From the IMG/VR virus record IMGVR_UViG_3300045988_122538: DNA of 64,000 nucleotides; one strand, given 5' to 3'. Position 1 is the stretch's first letter; every line of letters starts with the position of its first letter. Shown here one piece after another: positions 2,562 through 63,830 of this stretch. The notes below the pieces were generated by a model. It worked only from the letters and a program-made list of their open reading frames with translations, had not been told where the DNA came from and did not search any database. The stretch comes from a virus. The translations under genes and the position numbers were made by a program.

Positions 2562-3101
2562 ATGTCTATCAATCTTATAGGCGAAGATATAAAACTTATG
2601 AGAGCTAGATACAATGAAGCTCTCGAAATGCAAGGAATACCTTGTAAGTATCAATTTCCTAATATGGCTACTACAAATGAACAAGGAGAACCTCTAGTAG
2701 ACAGTTATTCTGATATGATTGATACTCATATATTCTTTGAAGGGTCTCCTAAAGTAAAAACATTCAAGCGTTTAGGTTGGGTAGTTGAAAATGATAAGGA
2801 CTTACCGTTCTTGCTCCATTGTAGTTTTGATTTGCCTAACTTACAAAAAGATAGTCTATTTCATATGTCAGGTCAATACACAGGTATGCCTGATAGAACA
2901 TTCAGAGTAACTGAGCTCACATGCGATTTTCAAGCACCTGATCATATGATTGCACAAGTAGTGCCTGTATATGATAAAAAACAGACTGTTGGTCGCACTA
3001 AGAAAGAGCGTCAGAATACATTTAAGACAAGCAACCATTTCTTAACAGAACCTGTAGATTATAGAGGTCAGTATATATCTGAACAAGAAGGTGAGCAGTA
3101 A
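2562..3101 (+). CDS. hypothetical protein (possible neck/connector component)
   Basis: Track frame 2550..3101. ATG 2562 follows GAGTGGTGA. Lies between the portal-like gene and the sheath; inference is positional only. Confidence 0.55.
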   Translation: MSINLIGEDIKLMRARYNEALEMQGIPCKYQFPNMATTNEQGEPLVDSYSDMIDTHIFFEGSPKVKTFKRLGWVVENDKDLPFLLHCSFDLPNLQKDSLFHMSGQYTGMPDRTFRVTELTCDFQAPDHMIAQVVPVYDKKQTVGRTKKERQNTFKTSNHFLTEPVDYRGQYISEQEGEQ

Positions 3102-3718
3102 TGATATATCTATATGATGAAGCAATTGTAAATGATTTGAAAAATTCATTCAATCCAAATGCAGTAGAAAATCCTGTTGTAAGTGTTGTATCACCTGACA
3201 AAGTTATTGATATAGCTGCACAGCTACAGAATGATGAGATAACATTTCCGATAGTGGCATTGACACGAAATGATGATATCTCTATTGATACAAATCTTAC
3301 AAACTTCACTCGTATGCATAAAGGTGTAGCGGCTGTTATAGATCCTAAAACTAATAATCTGTATTATGAACATGCAATTCCGCTGAACCTCGAATATTCA
3401 TTAACTGTACTTGCTACTAATACTGCTGATATGGATGAGCTAATACGAGAGCTAATATTCAAATACACAAGAATGTATTTCTTGACAATAACATTACCAT
3501 ATGAAGGTCAACGAAAAGTACGGTTTGGTGTAACAATAAATTCTGATTCTGCTATTGAACGATCATCTGGTGTTGTAGAATATTTAGAATCAGGGCAGAT
3601 ATATCAGTCAATAATTCGATTGAAATGTGAGGGTTGTGTATATGTGAAGTATACACCTGTACATCTCAAACGTACTGCTCATGAAATTGTCCCAGCAGTG
3701 CCTACTAAAAGTAAGTAA
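3101..3718 (+). CDS. hypothetical protein (possible neck/tail-terminator)
   Basis: 205-aa ORF with TAATG overlap to the previous gene, just upstream of the sheath module. Positional inference only. Confidence 0.55.
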   Translation: MIYLYDEAIVNDLKNSFNPNAVENPVVSVVSPDKVIDIAAQLQNDEITFPIVALTRNDDISIDTNLTNFTRMHKGVAAVIDPKTNNLYYEHAIPLNLEYSLTVLATNTADMDELIRELIFKYTRMYFLTITLPYEGQRKVRFGVTINSDSAIERSSGVVEYLESGQIYQSIIRLKCEGCVYVKYTPVHLKRTAHEIVPAVPTKSK

Positions 3719-56661: not shown

Positions 56662-57201
56662 ATGGACAATATAGAAAGCAAAATTGTATATGATCAGCGA
56701 ACTATAGTTCGTACACTATATACACTTGTACGTAATATCAAATGTGAAGTAGAGTTTGATGCTGAAAATCCGCCTGTTTATATTTGTATAATGAGTGGAG
56801 CAGTTCAATTCTTCTCTGCTATCACATTGATGTTACCACCAGGTAGATGTGAATATATCAAAGCACATAGTTATGGTGACAATCAATCAGCTGGAACACT
56901 TGTTGTTTCTGATATCAACAATTCTTCATTATTATCTGCAAAACATATCTTCATATTTGATGATATATGTGATAGTGGAGCTACGTTGAAAGCTGTGAGA
57001 GATATGGTGCAATCAGCTAATCCAACTGCATCTGTATATACTGTAGCCCTCATCAATCGTGTAAATGAAGATAAAGGGGTACCTTACTGGTCTGGTATTG
57101 ATACATCCGAATCTACATTCTTTGCAGGATTTGGTATGGATAATAAAGGACTAAATAGAAATCTATCATTTATCTATGATTGTACGGAGGACAAGATATG
57201 A
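56662..57201 (+). CDS. phosphoribosyltransferase (HGPRT-like)
   Basis: PRPP-binding motif is HIFIFDDICDSGATL. 179 aa. Confidence 0.7.
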   Translation: MDNIESKIVYDQRTIVRTLYTLVRNIKCEVEFDAENPPVYICIMSGAVQFFSAITLMLPPGRCEYIKAHSYGDNQSAGTLVVSDINNSSLLSAKHIFIFDDICDSGATLKAVRDMVQSANPTASVYTVALINRVNEDKGVPYWSGIDTSESTFFAGFGMDNKGLNRNLSFIYDCTEDKI

Positions 57202-57602
57202 ACATTCAAGAAGGTCAAGTGTATAATGTTGTAGTAACTAAAATTCTACCAAGAGGTATCATTGTACAGATTCAAGGTACATCTGATACTGAATTCATAC
57301 ATATCTCTAAATTATCTGTCAAATTTGTATCAGATATTTCAAAGCTTGTAACTGTTGGCGATAAGCTAGAGGCAGTATGTATTCAAGGTAAAGATAGGCT
57401 TGAGTTATCTTTACAACACTTACACCTTGAATCGTTATATAAACATGTAGAACGCAAGCAGCTTCCACCAAAGAAATCAACAAAGCAGAAATCAACTTCT
57501 GTTGAAGATATGATTGCAGCTGTTGAACGAGATTTCAAAGAGAAGCAGCGTGCTTCAGATTCAAGATTAAGACGAAAACAAAAGTCTAATCGAAGAAAGT
57601 AA
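57198..57602 (+). CDS. S1-domain RNA-binding protein with basic tail
   Basis: Track frame 57180..57602. ATG 57198 follows GGAGG. GQVYNVVVTKILPRGIIVQIQGTSDTEFIHISKLS...VGDKLEAVCI fits the S1 fold pattern. K/R-rich C-terminus. Confidence 0.7.
   Translation: MNIQEGQVYNVVVTKILPRGIIVQIQGTSDTEFIHISKLSVKFVSDISKLVTVGDKLEAVCIQGKDRLELSLQHLHLESLYKHVERKQLPPKKSTKQKSTSVEDMIAAVERDFKEKQRASDSRLRRKQKSNRRK
57430..57438 (+). promoter_or_regulatory. AATCGTTAT box (intragenic copy)
   Basis: Exact copy inside the S1-domain gene, about 200 nt upstream of ATG 57635. Confidence 0.25.
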
Positions 57603-58188: not shown

Positions 58189-58369
58189 TATAAGTGATTC
58201 AGTCAGCTAGACTGAATAGGGAATCTCTAATGAAGAGAGTACTACCGTCTGAGGGTTGACGGTAGACCAGTCGGTGATAGACACATATCTTAATAGATAT
58301 AAGTTAGTGCAAGTCTAACTTCCGGCACCAAACGTTTTCTCAATTGAACGTACACAATCAATTGTATAT

Positions 58370-58446
58370 GGGCCTTTAGCTCAGTCGGTTAGAGCAGCTG
58401 ACTCATAATCAGCAGGTCGTCAGTTCAAGCCTGACAAGGCCCACCA
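58370..58446 (+). tRNA. tRNA-Met or Ile2 (anticodon CAU), CCA encoded
   Basis: Hand fold: GGGCCTT-TA-GCTC-AGTCGGTTA-GAGC-A-GCTGA-CTCATAA-TCAGC-AGGTC-GTCAG-TTCAAGC-CTGAC-AAGGCCC-A-CCA. G1-C72 and the anticodon stem are not initiator-like. Confidence 0.9.
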
Positions 58447-58518
58447 GCCCGCAAGGGCACCTTTTATATCCCTTTGTTCTACTATTTTATTTTACTCCTT
58501 TCATTTTTTTATTTGTTG

Positions 58519-58561
58519 TCTTAGAAATGATACATATCATGTGCGAGTATCATTTCTAAGA
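58519..58561 (+). repeat. perfect 15-bp inverted repeat (hairpin)
   Basis: TCTTAGAAATGATAC (58519-33), a 13-nt loop, then GTATCATTTCTAAGA (58547-61). Follows a T-rich tract after tRNA-Met. Confidence 0.9.
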
Positions 58562-58584
58562 TACAATTTTCCTCTAAGTAGGAC

Positions 58585-58593
58585 AATCGTTAT
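58585..58593 (+). promoter_or_regulatory. AATCGTTAT box
   Basis: Exact copy 28 nt upstream of tRNA-Gln. Confidence 0.4.
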
Positions 58594-58620
58594 TGTAAGT
58601 GAAGATAATCACTTACATGA

Positions 58621-58696
58621 TGGACTATAGCCAAGGGGTAAGGCAACGGACTTTGACTCCGTCATTCCGCTGGTTCGAATCCAGCTAGTCCAACCA
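58621..58696 (+). tRNA. tRNA-Gln (anticodon UUG), CCA encoded
   Basis: Hand fold: TGGACTA-TA-GCC-AAGGGGTAA-GGC-A-ACGGA-CTTTGAC-TCCGT-CATTCC-GCTGG-TTCGAAT-CCAGC-TAGTCCA-A-CCA. U1-A72 is as in bacterial tRNA-Gln. Confidence 0.85.
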
Positions 58697-59051
58697 GCAG
58701 TAGGAGTAATTTTCTCAATTTTAACGAACCTGCACACAAAAAAACATCGGTATAAGAATTGATGACATTCGGAAAGACGAACGCTGGTTTTAGAGCAAAT
58801 GTGGTTCCAACGTAAACAAATAAACAGGGATATGCGGCGAGGCGGACCTAAACGTCGACCATGTAGTGTCAGCGTAGCGAGATGATATGCATTCACTTCA
58901 CAGGGTATAGGCTGTTTAACCTGTGAAGAACAGCCAGCAGGGGCAGGACCTGCACACTACACCAGCTGTAAAGGGTGCTTTTCTCAATTTCTAATTACCA
59001 GCCGATAAAGTAGGAGAAAATTGATGACATTCTGGAAAGACAGATATCAAT

Positions 59052-59127
59052 GCTTCGATAGCTCAGTAGGTAGAGCAGGGGACTGAAAATCCCCGTGTCA
59101 TTGGTTCGATTCCAGTTCGGAGCACCA
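59052..59127 (+). tRNA. tRNA-Phe (anticodon GAA), CCA encoded
   Basis: Hand fold: GCTTCGA-TA-GCTC-AGTAGGTA-GAGC-A-GGGGA-CTGAAAA-TCCCC-GTGTC-ATTGG-TTCGATT-CCAGT-TCGGAGC-A-CCA. Confidence 0.9.
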
Positions 59128-59136
59128 AAACCAAAT

Positions 59137-59213
59137 CCGGATGTAACTCAGTTTGGTAGAGTGCTTGCTTTGGGAGCAAGATGCCGCAGGTTCGACTCCT
59201 GTCATTCGGACCA
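59137..59213 (+). tRNA. tRNA-Pro (anticodon UGG), CCA encoded
   Basis: Hand fold: CCGGATG-TA-ACTC-AGTTTGGTA-GAGT-G-CTTGC-TTTGGGA-GCAAG-ATGCC-GCAGG-TTCGACT-CCTGT-CATTCGG-A-CCA. C1-G72 is typical of bacterial tRNA-Pro. Confidence 0.9.
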
Positions 59214-59360
59214 GCTAGAGCTCAGCAGACACACCTTGACTTCATAGCAGTCTTAAAAATGAATGGAGCCCCGATTTCATTCGATTTACAGGGTGATTGA
59301 AAAATCGGATAAATCATGATTGGGTTGGTAAACCTCAGTTCGCTGGAAGCTTCCAAATAT

Positions 59361-59447
59361 GCCGCTGTGGTGGAATAGGCAGACACAAGGGACTTAAAAT
59401 CCCTCGGAGTAAAATCCGTACCGGTTCAAGTCCGGTCAGCGGCACCA
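59361..59447 (+). tRNA. tRNA-Leu (anticodon UAA), type II, CCA encoded
   Basis: Hand fold: GCCGCTG-TG-GTG-GAATAGGCAGA-CAC-A-AGGGA-CTTAAAA-TCCCT-long variable arm CGGAGTAAAATCCGT-ACCGG-TTCAAGT-CCGGT-CAGCGGC-A-CCA. Confidence 0.9.
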
Positions 59448-59984
59448 GTGCTGTTGATAGTTTAATGAGGTCGTAAGTTCAAGTTAACCTTATGAATGAG
59501 GTTCGGGCTTATGTGCCAATAGTCTGTGGAAACAAATTTCCGTGAGGTTGTATCAGCTATATCTGATATGTAAAACTAGGTCGTGAGCAGCGGGATTGCT
59601 ACCAAACCAGCAAGCAAGGTGGATAAGCCTTGCAAACTCAGCACAAAAAATGTCAGTTCCTTCAGAATTATTGACATTGGTGTTACCTCCAGTAACCTAT
59701 AAAAAAATGATCAGGAGCTGACATTATAAGGTGAATATATCTAGTGAGATATGCGTAGGTTGCAAACTACAATTATCAACAACGTAGTGACCTAGATACA
59801 ACACATGATAAAATATGATAGTTGTTATGTCAGAGTTGCAACGATGGTGTATCAGCATCATATGGTTCATGTAAAGGATGAATCAGATCGAAGGACGATA
59901 AAGATATTATGCGTACCTGGCTGTTAATCTGTTGGAAGGTGCAAGTCCTTTATTCACCCCCAATTTTTTTCTAAGGAGAACGAT
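59448..59984 (+). ncRNA. candidate large structured ncRNA (unclassified)
   Basis: 537 nt between tRNA-Leu and the deaminase gene with no ORF of 60 aa or more. At least six perfect 5-7 bp local hairpins. Ends in a tRNA-like T-arm, acceptor strand and CCA at 59935-59962. Confidence 0.3.
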
Positions 59985-60440
59985 ATGAATCCATTCATGG
60001 AATTGGCAATGTTAGAAGCCCTTGAAGGCATTGAATTAAATCATGGTGGACCGTTTGGAGCTGTTATCGTCAAAGACGGTAAAGTGATAAGCAGGGCACA
60101 TAACATGGTGATTGCTAACAATGATCCAACTGCTCATGGTGAAATTCAAGCAATTAGATCTGCATGTAAGAAACTCAATACATTTGATCTAACAGGTTGT
60201 GAAATTTACACTACTGGATATCCTTGTCCAATGTGTTTTTGTGCTATCCTTTGGTCAAACATTGATAAGGTGTATTACGGCTGTAATACATCTGATACAG
60301 AAATAATTGGATTTCGTGACAAGCAGTTTTATGATTCTATTCCTGCTAAGATGCAGGAGATATGTTATGAAGTAGATAGACAAGAATGTTTATCTATTTA
60401 CAACACTTACAACAATATGTCAGATGCTACTAATTACTAA
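59985..60440 (+). CDS. CDA-fold zinc deaminase, guanine-deaminase (GuaD)-like
   Basis: GGPFGAVIVKDGKVISRAHN...NDPTAHGEIQAIR...GYPCPMCFCAILWS closely parallels B. subtilis-type guanine deaminase. Zinc motifs are H(G)E and PCxxC. Confidence 0.8.
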   Translation: MNPFMELAMLEALEGIELNHGGPFGAVIVKDGKVISRAHNMVIANNDPTAHGEIQAIRSACKKLNTFDLTGCEIYTTGYPCPMCFCAILWSNIDKVYYGCNTSDTEIIGFRDKQFYDSIPAKMQEICYEVDRQECLSIYNTYNNMSDATNY

Positions 60441-60471
60441 TGTATTCAAGCTGATGTAACAGTCAGCATAT

Positions 60472-60553
60472 GCAGATGTGGTGAAAGCGGAAGCCACCTA
60501 GATTGAGTTCTAGCCCTTGTAGGATGCAGGTTCAAATCCTGCCATCTGCACCA
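60472..60553 (+). tRNA. type II tRNA-like gene with non-canonical anticodon loop (identity undetermined, possibly Ser-UGA-like or pseudogene)
   Basis: Good acceptor (GCAGATG/CATCTGC-A-CCA), T-arm (GCAGG-TTCAAAT-CCTGC), D-arm and variable arm. The anticodon arm CTAG-ATTGAGTT-CTAG gives only a 6-nt or 8-nt loop. Confidence 0.5.
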
Positions 60554-60850
60554 GAAACACAAAGTAAAGTGAAAGTACTCGTGAAAAGATTACAAACACT
60601 GAGATAAAACCATGGAGCTACTTGACATTAAGTAGTAGAGAAGTGGGTGTATCAGTAGCTTTATCATCATAGACCTTGTGGTTGGAGTAGCTGTCGCTAG
60701 GACAATATGCGATGCTGCATATAATTGCAGTGAGTGTCCCAGCTATTCTTAGTGTTTAGAGGTATCATAAAAAGTACCTGATTAGATGTCGGTGAGTATC
60801 GGCTAAACGTCAAAAGCTTTTCGTGTGACTATTACGAAAAATAGTCATAT

Positions 60851-60935
60851 GCGGATATGGTGAAATTGGCAGACACGTTAGATTTAGGTTCTAATGCCGT
60901 AAGGTGTGCAGGTTCGAGTCCTGTTATCCGCACCA
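60851..60935 (+). tRNA. tRNA-Leu (anticodon UAG), type II, CCA encoded
   Basis: Hand fold: GCGGATA-TG-GTG-AAATTGGCAGA-CAC-G-TTAGA-TTTAGGT-TCTAA-TGCCGTAAGGTGT-GCAGG-TTCGAGT-CCTGT-TATCCGC-A-CCA. Confidence 0.9.
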
Positions 60936-61276
60936 CAGGTTCTTGCATTCCAACCTAAGAGCACAAAAAAGACGAATGTAACTTGCTGCTAGCACTAGGA
61001 TAGTGGCATTTTAGACACCCTAGGGTTTTCATCCTTAACCTTAAAAAGGATAGACTATTTGAGCATTAGATAGGCTTTATGTTCGTTGTAGCTGCTTGCC
61101 TTTGTAGGGGTGGCTAGCGGACTAGTCCGATGTGCTAGGACATTAGTGCAATTAGCTCAGCAGTATGTCATGAATCTAATGTGTATTATTCTGCTAGGCA
61201 TGATATTATAGGTGAGTCTTTATATAAAGCGTGCTGTTCGGCAAACAGATATGATGCGGGGCAGCAACACCTATAT

Positions 61277-61367
61277 GTAGGAGTACCCAAGAGGTTCAAG
61301 GGAGCGGTCTTGAAAATCGCCAGCACAGGTGACTGTGGCGTGGGTTCGAATCCCACCTTCTACGCCA
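61277..61367 (+). tRNA. tRNA-Ser (anticodon UGA), type II, CCA encoded
   Basis: Hand fold: GTAGGAG-TA-CCC-AAGAGGTTCAA-GGG-A-GCGGT-CTTGAAA-ATCGC-CAGCACAGGTGACTGTGGC-GTGGG-TTCGAAT-CCCAC-CTTCTAC-G-CCA. Confidence 0.85.
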
Positions 61368-61408
61368 ATTTGTATTTCAAATAATGTGTATATGTAAAGG
61401 AGGAACTT

Positions 61409-61582
61409 ATGAAAGTATATGATAAAGATGATGATATGGAAGAATGCACTTCTCCATATGGTAACAGATCTTTGTTCATAACAAAAGAACAAATACAGGC
61501 TTTACTTGATGGTAAAGTGTTAGCCGATGATGAGTTTGATGAATATGGAATTTTCATTGAATTAGAAGATGCTGAAAAGTAG
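61409..61582 (+). CDS. small acidic ORF (57 aa)
   Basis: Below the ORF-track cutoff. AAGGAGG RBS, ATG 61409. Sequence is MKVYDKDDDMEECTSPYGNRSLFITKEQIQALLDGKVLADDEFDEYGIFIELEDAEK. Stop TAG is at 61580-82. Confidence 0.5.
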   Translation: MKVYDKDDDMEECTSPYGNRSLFITKEQIQALLDGKVLADDEFDEYGIFIELEDAEK

Positions 61583-62342: not shown

Positions 62343-63221
62343 ATGAACAAAGTATATAGTGAATTTCGTAGAGGTGATGTTTGGTTCGTCAAGCTGAACA
62401 CAGAGTTTGGTGATAATCAGGACAATTCATCTGTTCAACGTAAGAGCAGACCATATCTCATTGTGTCATGCGAAGCTAACAACAACTGCGCACCTACAAT
62501 CAATGCGGTTCCAATTACTACACGTCCTAGTGACCATCTTCCGATGCACATCTATTATGATTATAACGGTAGACATCAGCTTATTCTCTGTGAGCAGATT
62601 ACAACATTGTCTGTTCTTGATTTTCACAGAAGTGGTTCTCATTACATGTATAACTTGAGTGTTGATTTCATGAATACTGTAGATGATGCATTGTCTGCTC
62701 AGCTGGGTTTGCGTCCGAGAGTTGCTGATATGAAGGTACTTGAAAACCTTATTGATAAGATCTCAGCAGATAAAGAAGCAGAACTTAAACGTAAATACGA
62801 AGATGCTATTCAGTCTAAGGTATCTGAAATCGCTGCAAAGTTAGCTAAGAAGTTCAATGTAGATCTTACTTCTCAGGATATGCTTGATGGCGTAACTTAT
62901 AGACCTTCTGAAATTGCTTATGCGTCCAGTGAGGATAAGAAAACGATTTCTGATACAGCAAAAGAGCGTATGACATCGTCATCATCTGTGTCTGAACCTG
63001 AAGAACACATCACAGTTAAAACAAATGCAACTGCTGATGGATCTAAAAAATCAGATAAGAAACACAGCAGACGACAGTGGACAGAAGCAGCTATGAAGGA
63101 ATTTTTAGCAGCAAGTTCTCATCTTTCTGTATCAGCAATGTCTGCTAAATACGGAATTGCAAAGAAATCTGTAACACAGTATGTTTGCTTGTTCAAGAAG
63201 AAGTTGGAAACAAAGGATTAA
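62343..63221 (+). CDS. MazF/PemK-like domain fused to a long C-terminal extension ending in an HTH-like segment
   Basis: The N-terminal ~110 aa (RGDVWFVKL...QRKSRPYLIVS...VPITTRP...LILCEQITTLS) fit the PemK/MazF pattern. The C-terminal ~180 aa are low-complexity, followed by MSAKYGIAKKSVTQYVCLFKKKL. Confidence 0.65.
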   Translation: MNKVYSEFRRGDVWFVKLNTEFGDNQDNSSVQRKSRPYLIVSCEANNNCAPTINAVPITTRPSDHLPMHIYYDYNGRHQLILCEQITTLSVLDFHRSGSHYMYNLSVDFMNTVDDALSAQLGLRPRVADMKVLENLIDKISADKEAELKRKYEDAIQSKVSEIAAKLAKKFNVDLTSQDMLDGVTYRPSEIAYASSEDKKTISDTAKERMTSSSSVSEPEEHITVKTNATADGSKKSDKKHSRRQWTEAAMKEFLAASSHLSVSAMSAKYGIAKKSVTQYVCLFKKKLETKD

Positions 63222-63230
63222 GGTGATATA

Positions 63231-63830
63231 ATGACACCTAAGGAGCTGTTTGATGCTAACACGAGCATTGTAGGATGGTGTTTCAAAAAATATGTAAACA
63301 ATTACAAATCTCCTGAATTTGATGACATTATGCAAGAGGGTATGCTTGGCCTATGGGAAGCAGCTTGTAGATTTGATGACTCTAAAGGATATAAATTCAC
63401 AACATTCGCAGTACCATATGTATTTGGTCGTATGAAACACTATATGAGAAATAAAACAAATGTAATAAGACCACCTAGATCTGTATTTGAAAACAGTGAT
63501 GTTAAAGCATTATCTGAACTATACAGCATACAGTCATTAGATATGGAAGTGTTTGATGACGGTGGTACACCTGTATTATTACGAGACTTGATAGGTGCTC
63601 CTCCTGATGAATACGAATTCATAACAGAAGATCTACTTGAAAGCTTTCTTGATACTATCGACAATCAACTGCACAAAGATATCATGGAAGAGTATTATTA
63701 CTCGTACATATGGGGAATACATTCTAAACAAGTGTACCTGGCAGAAAAGTATGGAACTTGTCAGGCTCAAATTGCTCGAATAATCAAGAAGTACAATCAG
63801 AAATTTGTAGATTTTATACAAAAGTCCTAA
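63231..63830 (+). CDS. sigma-70-family sigma factor
   Basis: Region 2-like: DIMQEGMLGLWEAACRFDDSKGYKFTTFAVPYVFGRMKHYMR. Region 4-like HTH: AEKYGTCQAQIARIIKK. 199 aa. Confidence 0.8.
   Translation: MTPKELFDANTSIVGWCFKKYVNNYKSPEFDDIMQEGMLGLWEAACRFDDSKGYKFTTFAVPYVFGRMKHYMRNKTNVIRPPRSVFENSDVKALSELYSIQSLDMEVFDDGGTPVLLRDLIGAPPDEYEFITEDLLESFLDTIDNQLHKDIMEEYYYSYIWGIHSKQVYLAEKYGTCQAQIARIIKKYNQKFVDFIQKS

Follow-up and report, generated by a model that had tools for sequence, protein, structure and literature searches.

A non-coding segment of 537 nucleotides (nt) lies at positions 59448-59984 of a viral DNA stretch of 64,000 nt (IMG/VR record IMGVR_UViG_3300045988_122538), which at its full length is called the window here. 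The segment is flanked by a tRNA-Leu(UAA) gene (59361-59447) and by a deaminase gene with its ATG at 59985. The window is from a large phage with all genes on the + strand, and its proteins, including tail sheath, baseplate, and major head proteins, indicate a myovirus-like phage. Nine tRNA genes are present in the window, eight of which are clustered in 58370-61367 (ARAGORN). A preliminary description of this DNA placed the segment between tRNA-Leu(UAA) and the deaminase, regarded it as free of open reading frames (ORFs) and as the longest non-coding stretch, and proposed a large non-coding RNA (ncRNA) in a ROOL/GOLLD-like context. The location agrees with the coordinates above, the longest ORFs have 41 amino acids (aa) on the + strand and 48 aa on the - strand, and no other stretch of the window is as long without a tRNA and without + strand ORFs of 60 aa or more. 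The context agrees as well, since the segment is inside the tRNA array of a phage, which is the setting reported for these RNA classes (PMC5737381).

Mosaic build of the segment

The segment consists of three separable modules, A, B, and C (Table 1), and is not one large RNA. Four near-identical loci (L001, L002, L057, and L087) contain the whole segment with 94-100% identity. L058, whose deaminase is 86% identical, contains only 59749-59984, right after tRNA-Lys and a leader hairpin. In L071 and L075, 59448-59643 is followed directly by the spacer that starts at window position 60554, and in L108, 59448-59659 is followed by unrelated sequence. Since the parts occur separately in relatives, the segment was treated as three modules. 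Module A is also present between other tRNA genes in the type 2 loci (defined below), L155, and L156, and its boundaries are constant next to four different 3' neighbours. The conserved unit is therefore about 197 nt long, and the remaining 340 nt are made up of separable modules, which relatives lack or have replaced. As this example shows, the long gaps between the genes of tRNA arrays are mosaics of non-coding pieces, to be dissected by module before any is called a large RNA.

All 4,227 models of Rfam 15 were run with cmscan on the 64 kb of the window, on 3.2 kb around the segment (58300-61500), and, with the laxest filters, on 216 nt (59440-59655). At gathering thresholds, tRNAs were the only matches in the whole window, and at E values up to 10 nothing credible was found in the segment within the two smaller scopes. 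No known self-cleaving ribozyme or riboswitch was matched; what was reported, above E = 1, is noise (CRISPR-DR14, snoZ102, manA, and C0719), and neither the T-box nor the RNase P models matched the segment. Membership in ROOL or GOLLD, which the preliminary description had left to a model search, is thus not borne out at either threshold.

The view that the whole 537 nt form a single large ornate RNA of the ROOL/GOLLD type draws on its neighbourhood of phage tRNAs, a setting that GOLLD and ROOL are reported to share (PMC5737381), and on the fold of the whole segment, which stands out from its shuffles more on the + strand (z = -2.69) than on the - strand (z = -1.31). It is contradicted by the separate occurrence of the parts in relatives. 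Moreover, the consensus folds contain no long-range helix between modules, the z value of module C by itself is -0.09, and neither ROOL, GOLLD, nor any other Rfam model matches at E up to 10. We consider this view extremely improbable.

Structure and distribution of module A

Module A is a discrete folded element on the + strand, under purifying selection in tRNA operons. Relatives were reached via the deaminase protein and via DNA patterns, and the copies of module A form five sequence clades in gut-phage contigs, for which the named sources are human-gut metagenomes. In the type 1 clade (the window, L001/L032, L002/L051, L057, L087, L108, L071, and L075), module A follows tRNA-Leu(UAA). In the type 2 clade (L072, L073, L074, L079, and L098), it is located between tRNA-Gly(UCC) and tRNA-Leu(UAA). 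The other homologues are those of the L155 clade, between tRNA-Pro and tRNA-Gly, the L156 clade, between tRNA-Pro and tRNA-Leu(CAA), and the L157 clade, which has no called tRNA and where the sequence 3' of the module resembles the beginning of a tRNA-Leu(UAA) cut by the locus end. Wherever a locus covers both flanks, module A lies between tRNA genes. Type 1 and type 2 are only 62-64% identical to each other.

Two alignments were used to examine the structure: A7, made with MAFFT only, contains 12 copies, and A8, to which three more distant clades were added, contains 15 copies from five clades. The core structure has 98.4% of cells paired in A7, with seven pairs changed on both sides against 0-1 in slid-partner controls. 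In A8, 98.0% of cells are paired, compensatory changes are found in 14 of the 31 pairs (slid-partner controls, 1-4), and none of 500 shuffles reached any of five measures. The covariation support sits in the hairpins P4a, P4b, and P5, and in P5 a pair has also gone independently from C-G to U-A in L075, a member of the type 1 clade. The helices contain many G-U pairs, which would give C-A mismatches on the opposite strand; they place module A on the + strand, the strand of the tRNAs. A search by covariation in A8 gave nothing convincing for a pseudoknot and no extra covarying helix in the core.

The six local hairpins listed in the preliminary description are all present at the coordinates given there, and three of them, GGAAA/TTTCC, TATCAG/CTGATA, and GCAAGG/CCTTGC, correspond to P3, P4a, and P5 of module A. 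When considered for covariation, P4a and P5 are supported by compensatory changes, but P3 essentially never varies. The terminal stem P1 links the first and last bases of module A in every clade with unrelated sequences, and its significance against shuffles differs from copy to copy (Table 1). P2 is a long hairpin at the same position in every clade, with differing sequence, in minimum-energy folds. The six pairs of P4 (GU..GGUU/AACC.GC) are all invariant, and covariation neither supports nor contradicts them. A 33-nt block, which includes P3 and the P4 5' strand, is essentially invariant (32 of 33 columns) across all 15 aligned copies, even though the surrounding helices have changed. Outside one P3 position, which five copies lack and one has changed, the copies differ only at the first base, in L156. 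The motifs GUAAAA and ACCWAACCAGC are likewise conserved.

An alternative pairing was also observed, in which the P2 3' strand (59503-59512) can pair with a stretch of P5 made up of its loop and 3' strand (59623-59632; ATAAGCCTTG) over up to 10 base pairs (bp). The P2 strand reads TAGGGCTTAT in L108, L057, L032, and L051, and GGGCTTAT, with 8 bp, in the window; the pairing is seen in type 1 copies only and not in the other clades.

Table 1. Coordinates of the segment's features, of its neighbours, and of the tRNA operon in L074, with the terminal stem P1 in other copies of module A. Positions are those of the window unless a locus is named; shuffle counts give the cases with a helix as long.
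Feature	Position	Strand	Remarks
tRNA-Leu(UAA), CCA encoded	59361-59447	+	ARAGORN; Rfam tRNA 57.7 bits; 5' neighbour of module A
Module A, structured RNA of about 197 nt, elements P1-P5	59448-59644	+	homologues, covariation, constant boundaries
P1, 5' strand GTGCTG	59448-59453	+	pairs with 59639-59644 (CAGCAC); 667/2000 shuffles
P1 in L075			GCTGAT / ATCAGC; 617/2000 shuffles
P1 in L071			ATGCTGAT / ATCAGCAT; 41/2000 shuffles
P1 in type 2 (L072)			AAGATAAATAGT / ACTATTTATCTT; 0/2000 shuffles
P1 in L155			AAAGAGGTC / GACCTCTTT; 32/2000 shuffles
P1 in L156			CAAGGTACA / TGTACCTTG; 8/2000 shuffles
P1 in L157			TAAAAGACAGTT / AACTGTCTTTTA; 0/2000 shuffles
P2, long 5' hairpin	59469-59517	+	GGTCGTAAGTTC...GGGCTTATG.GCC; inner AACCTTA/TGAGGTT hairpin; minimum-energy folds
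33-nt block CAATAGTCTGTGGAAACAAATTTCCGTGAGGTT	59517-59549	+	includes P3 (59528-59541) and P4 5' strand
P4a hairpin	59550-59569	+	GTATCAG-CTATAT-CTGATAT; compensatory changes in 5/7 pairs
P4b hairpin	59583-59602	+	GT(G)AGCAG-CGGGA-TTGCTAC; compensatory changes in 4/7 pairs
P4, 3' strand AACC.GC	59605-59611	+	pairs with 59542-59549, closing the P4a/P4b junction (RNAalifold)
P5 hairpin	59614-59633	+	GCAAGG-TGGATAAG-CCTTGC; compensatory changes in 5/6 pairs
Module B, A-run then stable compound hairpin	59645-59749	+	fold z = -3.51; inverted repeat I13
Module C, conserved non-coding leader	59750-59962	+	starts ATAT-GCGTAGG; ends with weak hairpin and CCA
Ribosome-binding site (RBS) AAGGAG and 151-aa nucleoside (guanine/TadA-like) deaminase, ATG at 59985	59973-60440	+	Pfam dCMP_cyt_deam_1, E = 4e-25
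Promoter in L074	L074 2043-2071		12/12 TTGACA-17-TATAAT with extended TG
Operon after the promoter in L074	L074, tRNA-Gly 2371-2444; module A 2445-2640; tRNA-Leu(UAA) 2641-2728		begins with a leader of about 300 nt
Terminator in L074	L074 2844-2887		19 pairs

The position of module A relative to the tRNA genes is precise. In the window, its first base is the base right after the CCA of tRNA-Leu(UAA), and in type 2, L155, and L156 its end is 3-7 nt ahead of the next tRNA. Only one copy is present per array, since no extra copies were found in the window and the loci with model R1, and the arrays covered at length contain 4-10 tRNAs. Between close relatives, module A is 96-98% identical, like the tRNAs, and the third codon positions of the deaminase are 84-91% identical. 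The most complete unit is that of L074, where promoter, tRNA-Gly, module A, tRNA-Leu(UAA), and terminator follow one another (Table 1); therefore, module A is part of a tRNA operon. The leader between the perfect promoter and tRNA-Gly of this locus (L074 2075-2370), of about 300 nt, is itself non-coding.

Module A is absent from Rfam 15 and from the GenBank phage records, and it is of a kind already known, that of orphan RNAs travelling with phage tRNAs. When 50,697 GenBank phage records were searched by BLASTN in distant mode, the tRNA alone was matched. An anchor-pattern scan of the GTDB representative genomes gave 30 matches, all by chance, and no copy of module A. A pattern scan of metagenomes gave 49 matches, of which just 4 were real, and a final IMG/VR scan, whose anchors did not depend on the 5' block, added no new member, its three matches being due to chance. 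The motif string of module A was not found in 200 supplement files of PMC8040213 nor in the literature text searched. Module A could still correspond to an unnamed entry in the catalogues of candidate structured RNAs (PMC10690425, PMC8040213), whose unnamed candidates are alike in data sources (IMG/VR, human gut) and in covariation evidence.

Modules B and C and other elements of the array

Module B is only found in the window and its near-identical relatives (L001, L002, L057, and L087) and is absent from L058, L071, L075, and L108. The outer stem of its compound hairpin is a 13-nt inverted repeat, 12/13 complementary, between 59649-61 and 59713-25. It encloses inner hairpins including GTTAC/GTAAC and is followed by the small hairpin ATATCT/AGATAT (59737-52). 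The hairpin AATGTCA/TGACATT of the preliminary description is present, but the minimum-energy fold prefers the rival 13-nt inverted repeat. The best explanation of module B is a lineage-specific hairpin spacer.

The heptamer TGACATT was rightly described as recurrent in the array, with six copies in 58763-60629 against about 0.6 expected (window-wide shuffle mean). A sigma-70 reading of these motifs was rejected, as a promoter scan of the array was not above shuffles. Two of the six copies belong to a 23-nt repeat, AATTGATGACATTC(T)GGAAAGAC, which is located at 58757-58779 and 59019-59042 in a 355-nt spacer before tRNA-Phe.

Module C is found upstream of the RBS in all six loci with this deaminase lineage (the window, L001, L002, L057, L058, and L087), and it stands alone, after tRNA-Lys, in L058. 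It is 94-98% identical between relatives, as opposed to 84-91% at the third codon positions of the deaminase. Its fold is no better than that of shuffles (z = -0.09), and its predicted helices contain only two double changes, which is not above shuffles either. The covariation check suggested by the preliminary description, which gave homologues with compensatory changes for module A, was thus not significant for module C. Small ORFs (40 aa on the + strand and 48 aa on the - strand) were ruled out as an explanation of the segment by a frame-breaking indel and a module boundary; the 40-aa ORF is excluded by a 1-nt indel in module C. In IMG/VR, scans with 15-mers and 16-mers for module C gave only two real contigs, which are near-identical, and the rest were chance matches.

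The start of module C follows a hairpin and an ATAT leader of the same kind as before class II tRNAs, and a T-arm-like element (GAAGG-TGCAAGT-CCTTT) followed by ATTCACC-C-CCA exists at 59935-59962, as first described. This element, however, is not kept in L058, the most distant copy, where a G-to-T change breaks a T-stem pair and 1 nt is deleted in the acceptor strand. The loop TGCAAGT has a G where tRNAs have the universal U55, and local folds at the 3' end prefer GUUGG..GGUG/CACC.CCAAU over the T-arm. Neither the Rfam tRNA model (E up to 10) nor ARAGORN with default settings finds a tRNA within 59448-59984; a relaxed ARAGORN run alone forces a tRNA model with a 139-nt 'intron' in the segment. 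Module C shows no similarity to 64 tRNAs from related arrays. Two further tRNA-like candidates were rejected. A giant element closed by GGTGAAT (59730) and ATTCACC (59952) is ruled out by L058, which is without the 5' strand, and an 85-nt class II tRNA from GATGAAT (59878) is ruled out by the consensus fold, which pairs its bases as AGGACG/CGTACCT and CAG/CTG.

Module C may be a conserved, cis-acting leader of the deaminase or a remnant. The more specific possibility of a cis-regulatory leader, attenuator- or riboswitch-like, can be entertained tentatively. It would account for the location directly before the RBS in all six loci, including L058, where everything upstream differs, for a conservation higher than that of synonymous sites, for the 3' hairpin followed by a U-rich run, and for the alternative pairing of GGAUGAAU with AUUCACCCC in the minimum-energy fold. 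On the other hand, no riboswitch or leader of Rfam is matched, the fold energy and the two double-changed pairs are those expected from shuffles, and the terminal hairpin is weak (-5 to -10 kcal/mol). Also, since all copies are at least 94% identical, the conservation may partly reflect recent common ancestry, and the 83%-identical deaminase of L059 has a different upstream sequence. Module C was likewise not found upstream of the deaminases of L003, L004, and L060 (69-75% identity).

The deaminase itself scores 69.6 bits on the TadA model, below the cut-off of 150, and its closest proteins are named guanine or nucleoside deaminase; they are cellular, and one is from a Clostridia metagenome-assembled genome. 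The 151-aa deaminase is embedded in the tRNA arrays of several phages (window 59985-60440, L058 5001-5456, and L059 95-565).

Several other elements were observed in the array. A short hairpin, ATAT, and then G+1 precede class II tRNA genes and module C alike (window 60450-60471 and 60820-60850, L058 4743-4766, and L059 565-595). Examples are AGCTGATGTAACAGTCAGC-ATAT and GACTATTACGAAAAATAGTC-ATAT, the latter with an A-U to G-C compensatory change in L108, and such a leader may serve as a signal for processing or punctuation. At 60472-60553 there is a tRNA-like gene of class II (Leu-type); its anticodon arm has a 5-bp stem, CTAGA/TCTAG, and a 6-nt loop, TTGAGT, ARAGORN assigns it a 2-base 'anticodon (ga)', and it scores 36.5 bits on the Rfam tRNA model. 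Copies are found at L001 4488-4567, L057 5489-5570, L058 5489-5569, L087 3855-3936, L108 182-261, and L071 1141-1220. Since it is about 95% identical in several related phages, this gene may be a functional odd tRNA and not a pseudogene. It is followed by a 297-nt spacer (60554-60850) before tRNA-Leu(UAG), which is 82-90% conserved in phages without modules B and C. The spacer has copies at L071 1221-1531 (-), L075 5246-5559 (-), L108 262-565, and L057 5571-5876, shows seven pairs with double changes (RNAalifold), and could be a second structured RNA of the array.

In L156, a tRNA-like element of about 145 nt (3514-3660) lies between tRNA-Pro and the module A copy; it has the ends GGTGAGTG...CACTCACC, a canonical T-arm, GGGGGTTCAAATCCCTCC, and a long internal insertion, and it is missed by ARAGORN. 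Between tRNA-Met and tRNA-Gln of the window (58519-58561), TCTTAGAAATGATAC / GTATCATTTCTAAGA form a perfect inverted repeat of 15 bp around a loop of 13 nt. The genes flanking the array include those of an S1-domain RNA-binding protein (57180-57602), a protein of 292 aa that carries a PemK/MazF toxin domain at its N terminus (62343-63221), and a sigma-70 region 2 protein (63231-63830).

Interpretation and comparison with known RNAs

Overall, the segment can be described, with a fair degree of likelihood, as a chain of three independent modules in a phage tRNA operon, where module A would be a discrete structured ncRNA. A proposed scheme for module A is as follows. It would be transcribed on the + strand together with the tRNAs, and tRNA-trimming enzymes would free it from the precursor, with RNase Z or 3' trimming acting upstream and RNase P downstream; its start at the CCA and its end 3-7 nt before the next tRNA suggest such a release. 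The terminal stem P1 may then shield its ends. The 33-nt block, which stayed essentially unchanged when the neighbouring helices changed, may be read as the recognition site or active core for a conserved partner, which is probably part of the tRNA or translation machinery. From the sequences we infer that module A would be excised by tRNA-processing enzymes, be stable, and act in trans.

Several points weigh against this interpretation. The fold energy of module A is only mildly better than that of shuffles (z = -1.86). P3 and P4 never vary and are thus not confirmed as helices, and the 6-bp P1 of the window, like that of L075, is not significant alone. Because A8 was fitted to the model, it is biased towards the structure, and it covers five clades only, with near-identical copies within clades, so that few independent events are behind the counts. 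The type 1 loci lack a tRNA directly downstream of module A that could define its 3' end, and in the flanks covered no conserved protein neighbour of module A is common to the clades.

Alternatively, module A could act only in cis, as a folding insulator or processing platform for the flanking pre-tRNAs, and then be degraded. Such a role would fit its place between tRNAs, abutting tRNA ends, where both flanks are covered, and the recurrence of hairpin and ATAT leaders ahead of tRNAs in the array. It seems unlikely, however, as module A is downstream of tRNA-Leu(UAA) in type 1 and upstream of it in type 2, its other neighbours differ (tRNA-Gly, tRNA-Leu(CAA), and tRNA-Pro), and there is one copy per array as opposed to 4-10 tRNAs. 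Furthermore, a near-invariant block of 33 nt together with a five-helix fold exceeds what an insulator would need. That the segment consists of neutral spacer and tRNA genes in decay, as remnants of a tRNA array in turnover, is less likely still. The array does gain and lose tRNAs among relatives, module C opens after a tRNA-type hairpin and ATAT leader and closes with a T-arm-like hairpin and NCCA, and a 16-nt stretch of P2 resembles the T-arm region of tRNA-Met (E = 0.04). That stretch is the only similarity to the 64 tRNAs from related arrays, and the tRNA model and ARAGORN defaults find nothing in the segment. Above all, a pseudogene would not keep the compensatory evolution and the near-invariant 33-nt block of module A over clades that are 62-64% identical. 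For modules B and C, decay of tRNA genes is a possible reading.

It was also considered that the conserved feature works as DNA, such as a site of recombination, replication, or protein binding. The module boundaries are also the points at which array variants have recombined, and TGACATT-type motifs are enriched in the array. Nevertheless, pairing is kept via G-U intermediates, which are workable only in + strand RNA, and the stems change in sequence yet stay complementary, with a terminal stem that differs in every clade. Module A is also inside a promoter-to-terminator unit with tRNAs. We therefore give a function at the DNA level next to no weight, and the structured ncRNA remains our preferred interpretation of module A.

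A more speculative partner of such an RNA would be the tRNA itself. T-box Stem I, RNase P, and the L1 stalk each dock on the tRNA elbow through a double T-loop, of which the pattern AGNNA...UGNNA is the signature (PMC3664808, PMC4810234). In module A, AGCAA (59609-13; AGCGA in L156) is immediately 5' of P5, and the P5 loop contains UGGAA (UGAAA in L072 and UGGA-U-A in type 1). The pattern is found in all 15 copies, though it is short, with each pentamer fixing just 3 bases. It agrees with the apex of T-box Stem I in pattern and strand order (PMC3664808); in RNase P, the sites compared were J11/12-J12/13. In the loop of module A, however, the second pentamer has no residues before it (N3 = 0), as compared with six in the T-box ProI example, and therefore the docking platform could not form as in T-box Stem I. 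That module A is a trans-acting tRNA binder, in which the essentially invariant core, with AGCAA and the UGGAA loop of P5, would form an interdigitated double T-loop at the tRNA elbow, is thus a highly speculative suggestion, to which we attach little probability. If true, it would be the fourth natural class with a double T-loop, after the L1 stalk, RNase P, and T-boxes, and in infection the phage would direct module A at its own tRNAs or at those of the host, which it would chaperone, sense, protect, or process.

ROOL and GOLLD, whose function is unknown, are RNAs of phages and prophages that often lie close to tRNA genes (PMC5737381, PMC12286853). GOLLD is larger than module A, which has about 197 nt, no detected pseudoknot, and no match to a covariance model of these classes. 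The closest comparison is with rnaC and rnaD of phage T4, also called species 1 and 2 stable RNAs, whose function is also still unknown (PMC9697503). The two RNAs, of 139 and 119 nt, are located within the phage tRNA cluster, where rnaD starts 1 nt after tRNA-Arg and is followed by rnaC. Like rnaD, module A abuts a tRNA on the same strand inside a phage tRNA cluster. We take rnaC and rnaD to mature from the tRNA precursor, and by analogy module A is most likely a stable ncRNA released from a tRNA precursor. No homology between them was detected with model R1 in the T4 region with filters off. Module A is longer, with a closed terminal stem, and lacks the tRNA-like T-arm that rnaC has at its 3' end.

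To our knowledge, up to 50 years of study have not revealed a function for any of rnaC, rnaD, GOLLD, and ROOL. The usual reading of a phage tRNA array is one of tRNA genes and spacers; here, at least one such 'spacer' is a folded RNA that is conserved in several distinct gut phages and whose core hardly varies. Since module A is strictly associated with tRNA genes, a concrete hypothesis is an interaction with tRNA or with tRNA enzymes. Module A therefore adds a tractable member of about 200 nt to the orphan RNAs found beside phage tRNAs, such as rnaC and rnaD of T4, GOLLD, and ROOL, and its size and clear boundaries suit probing, pull-down, and structural work.

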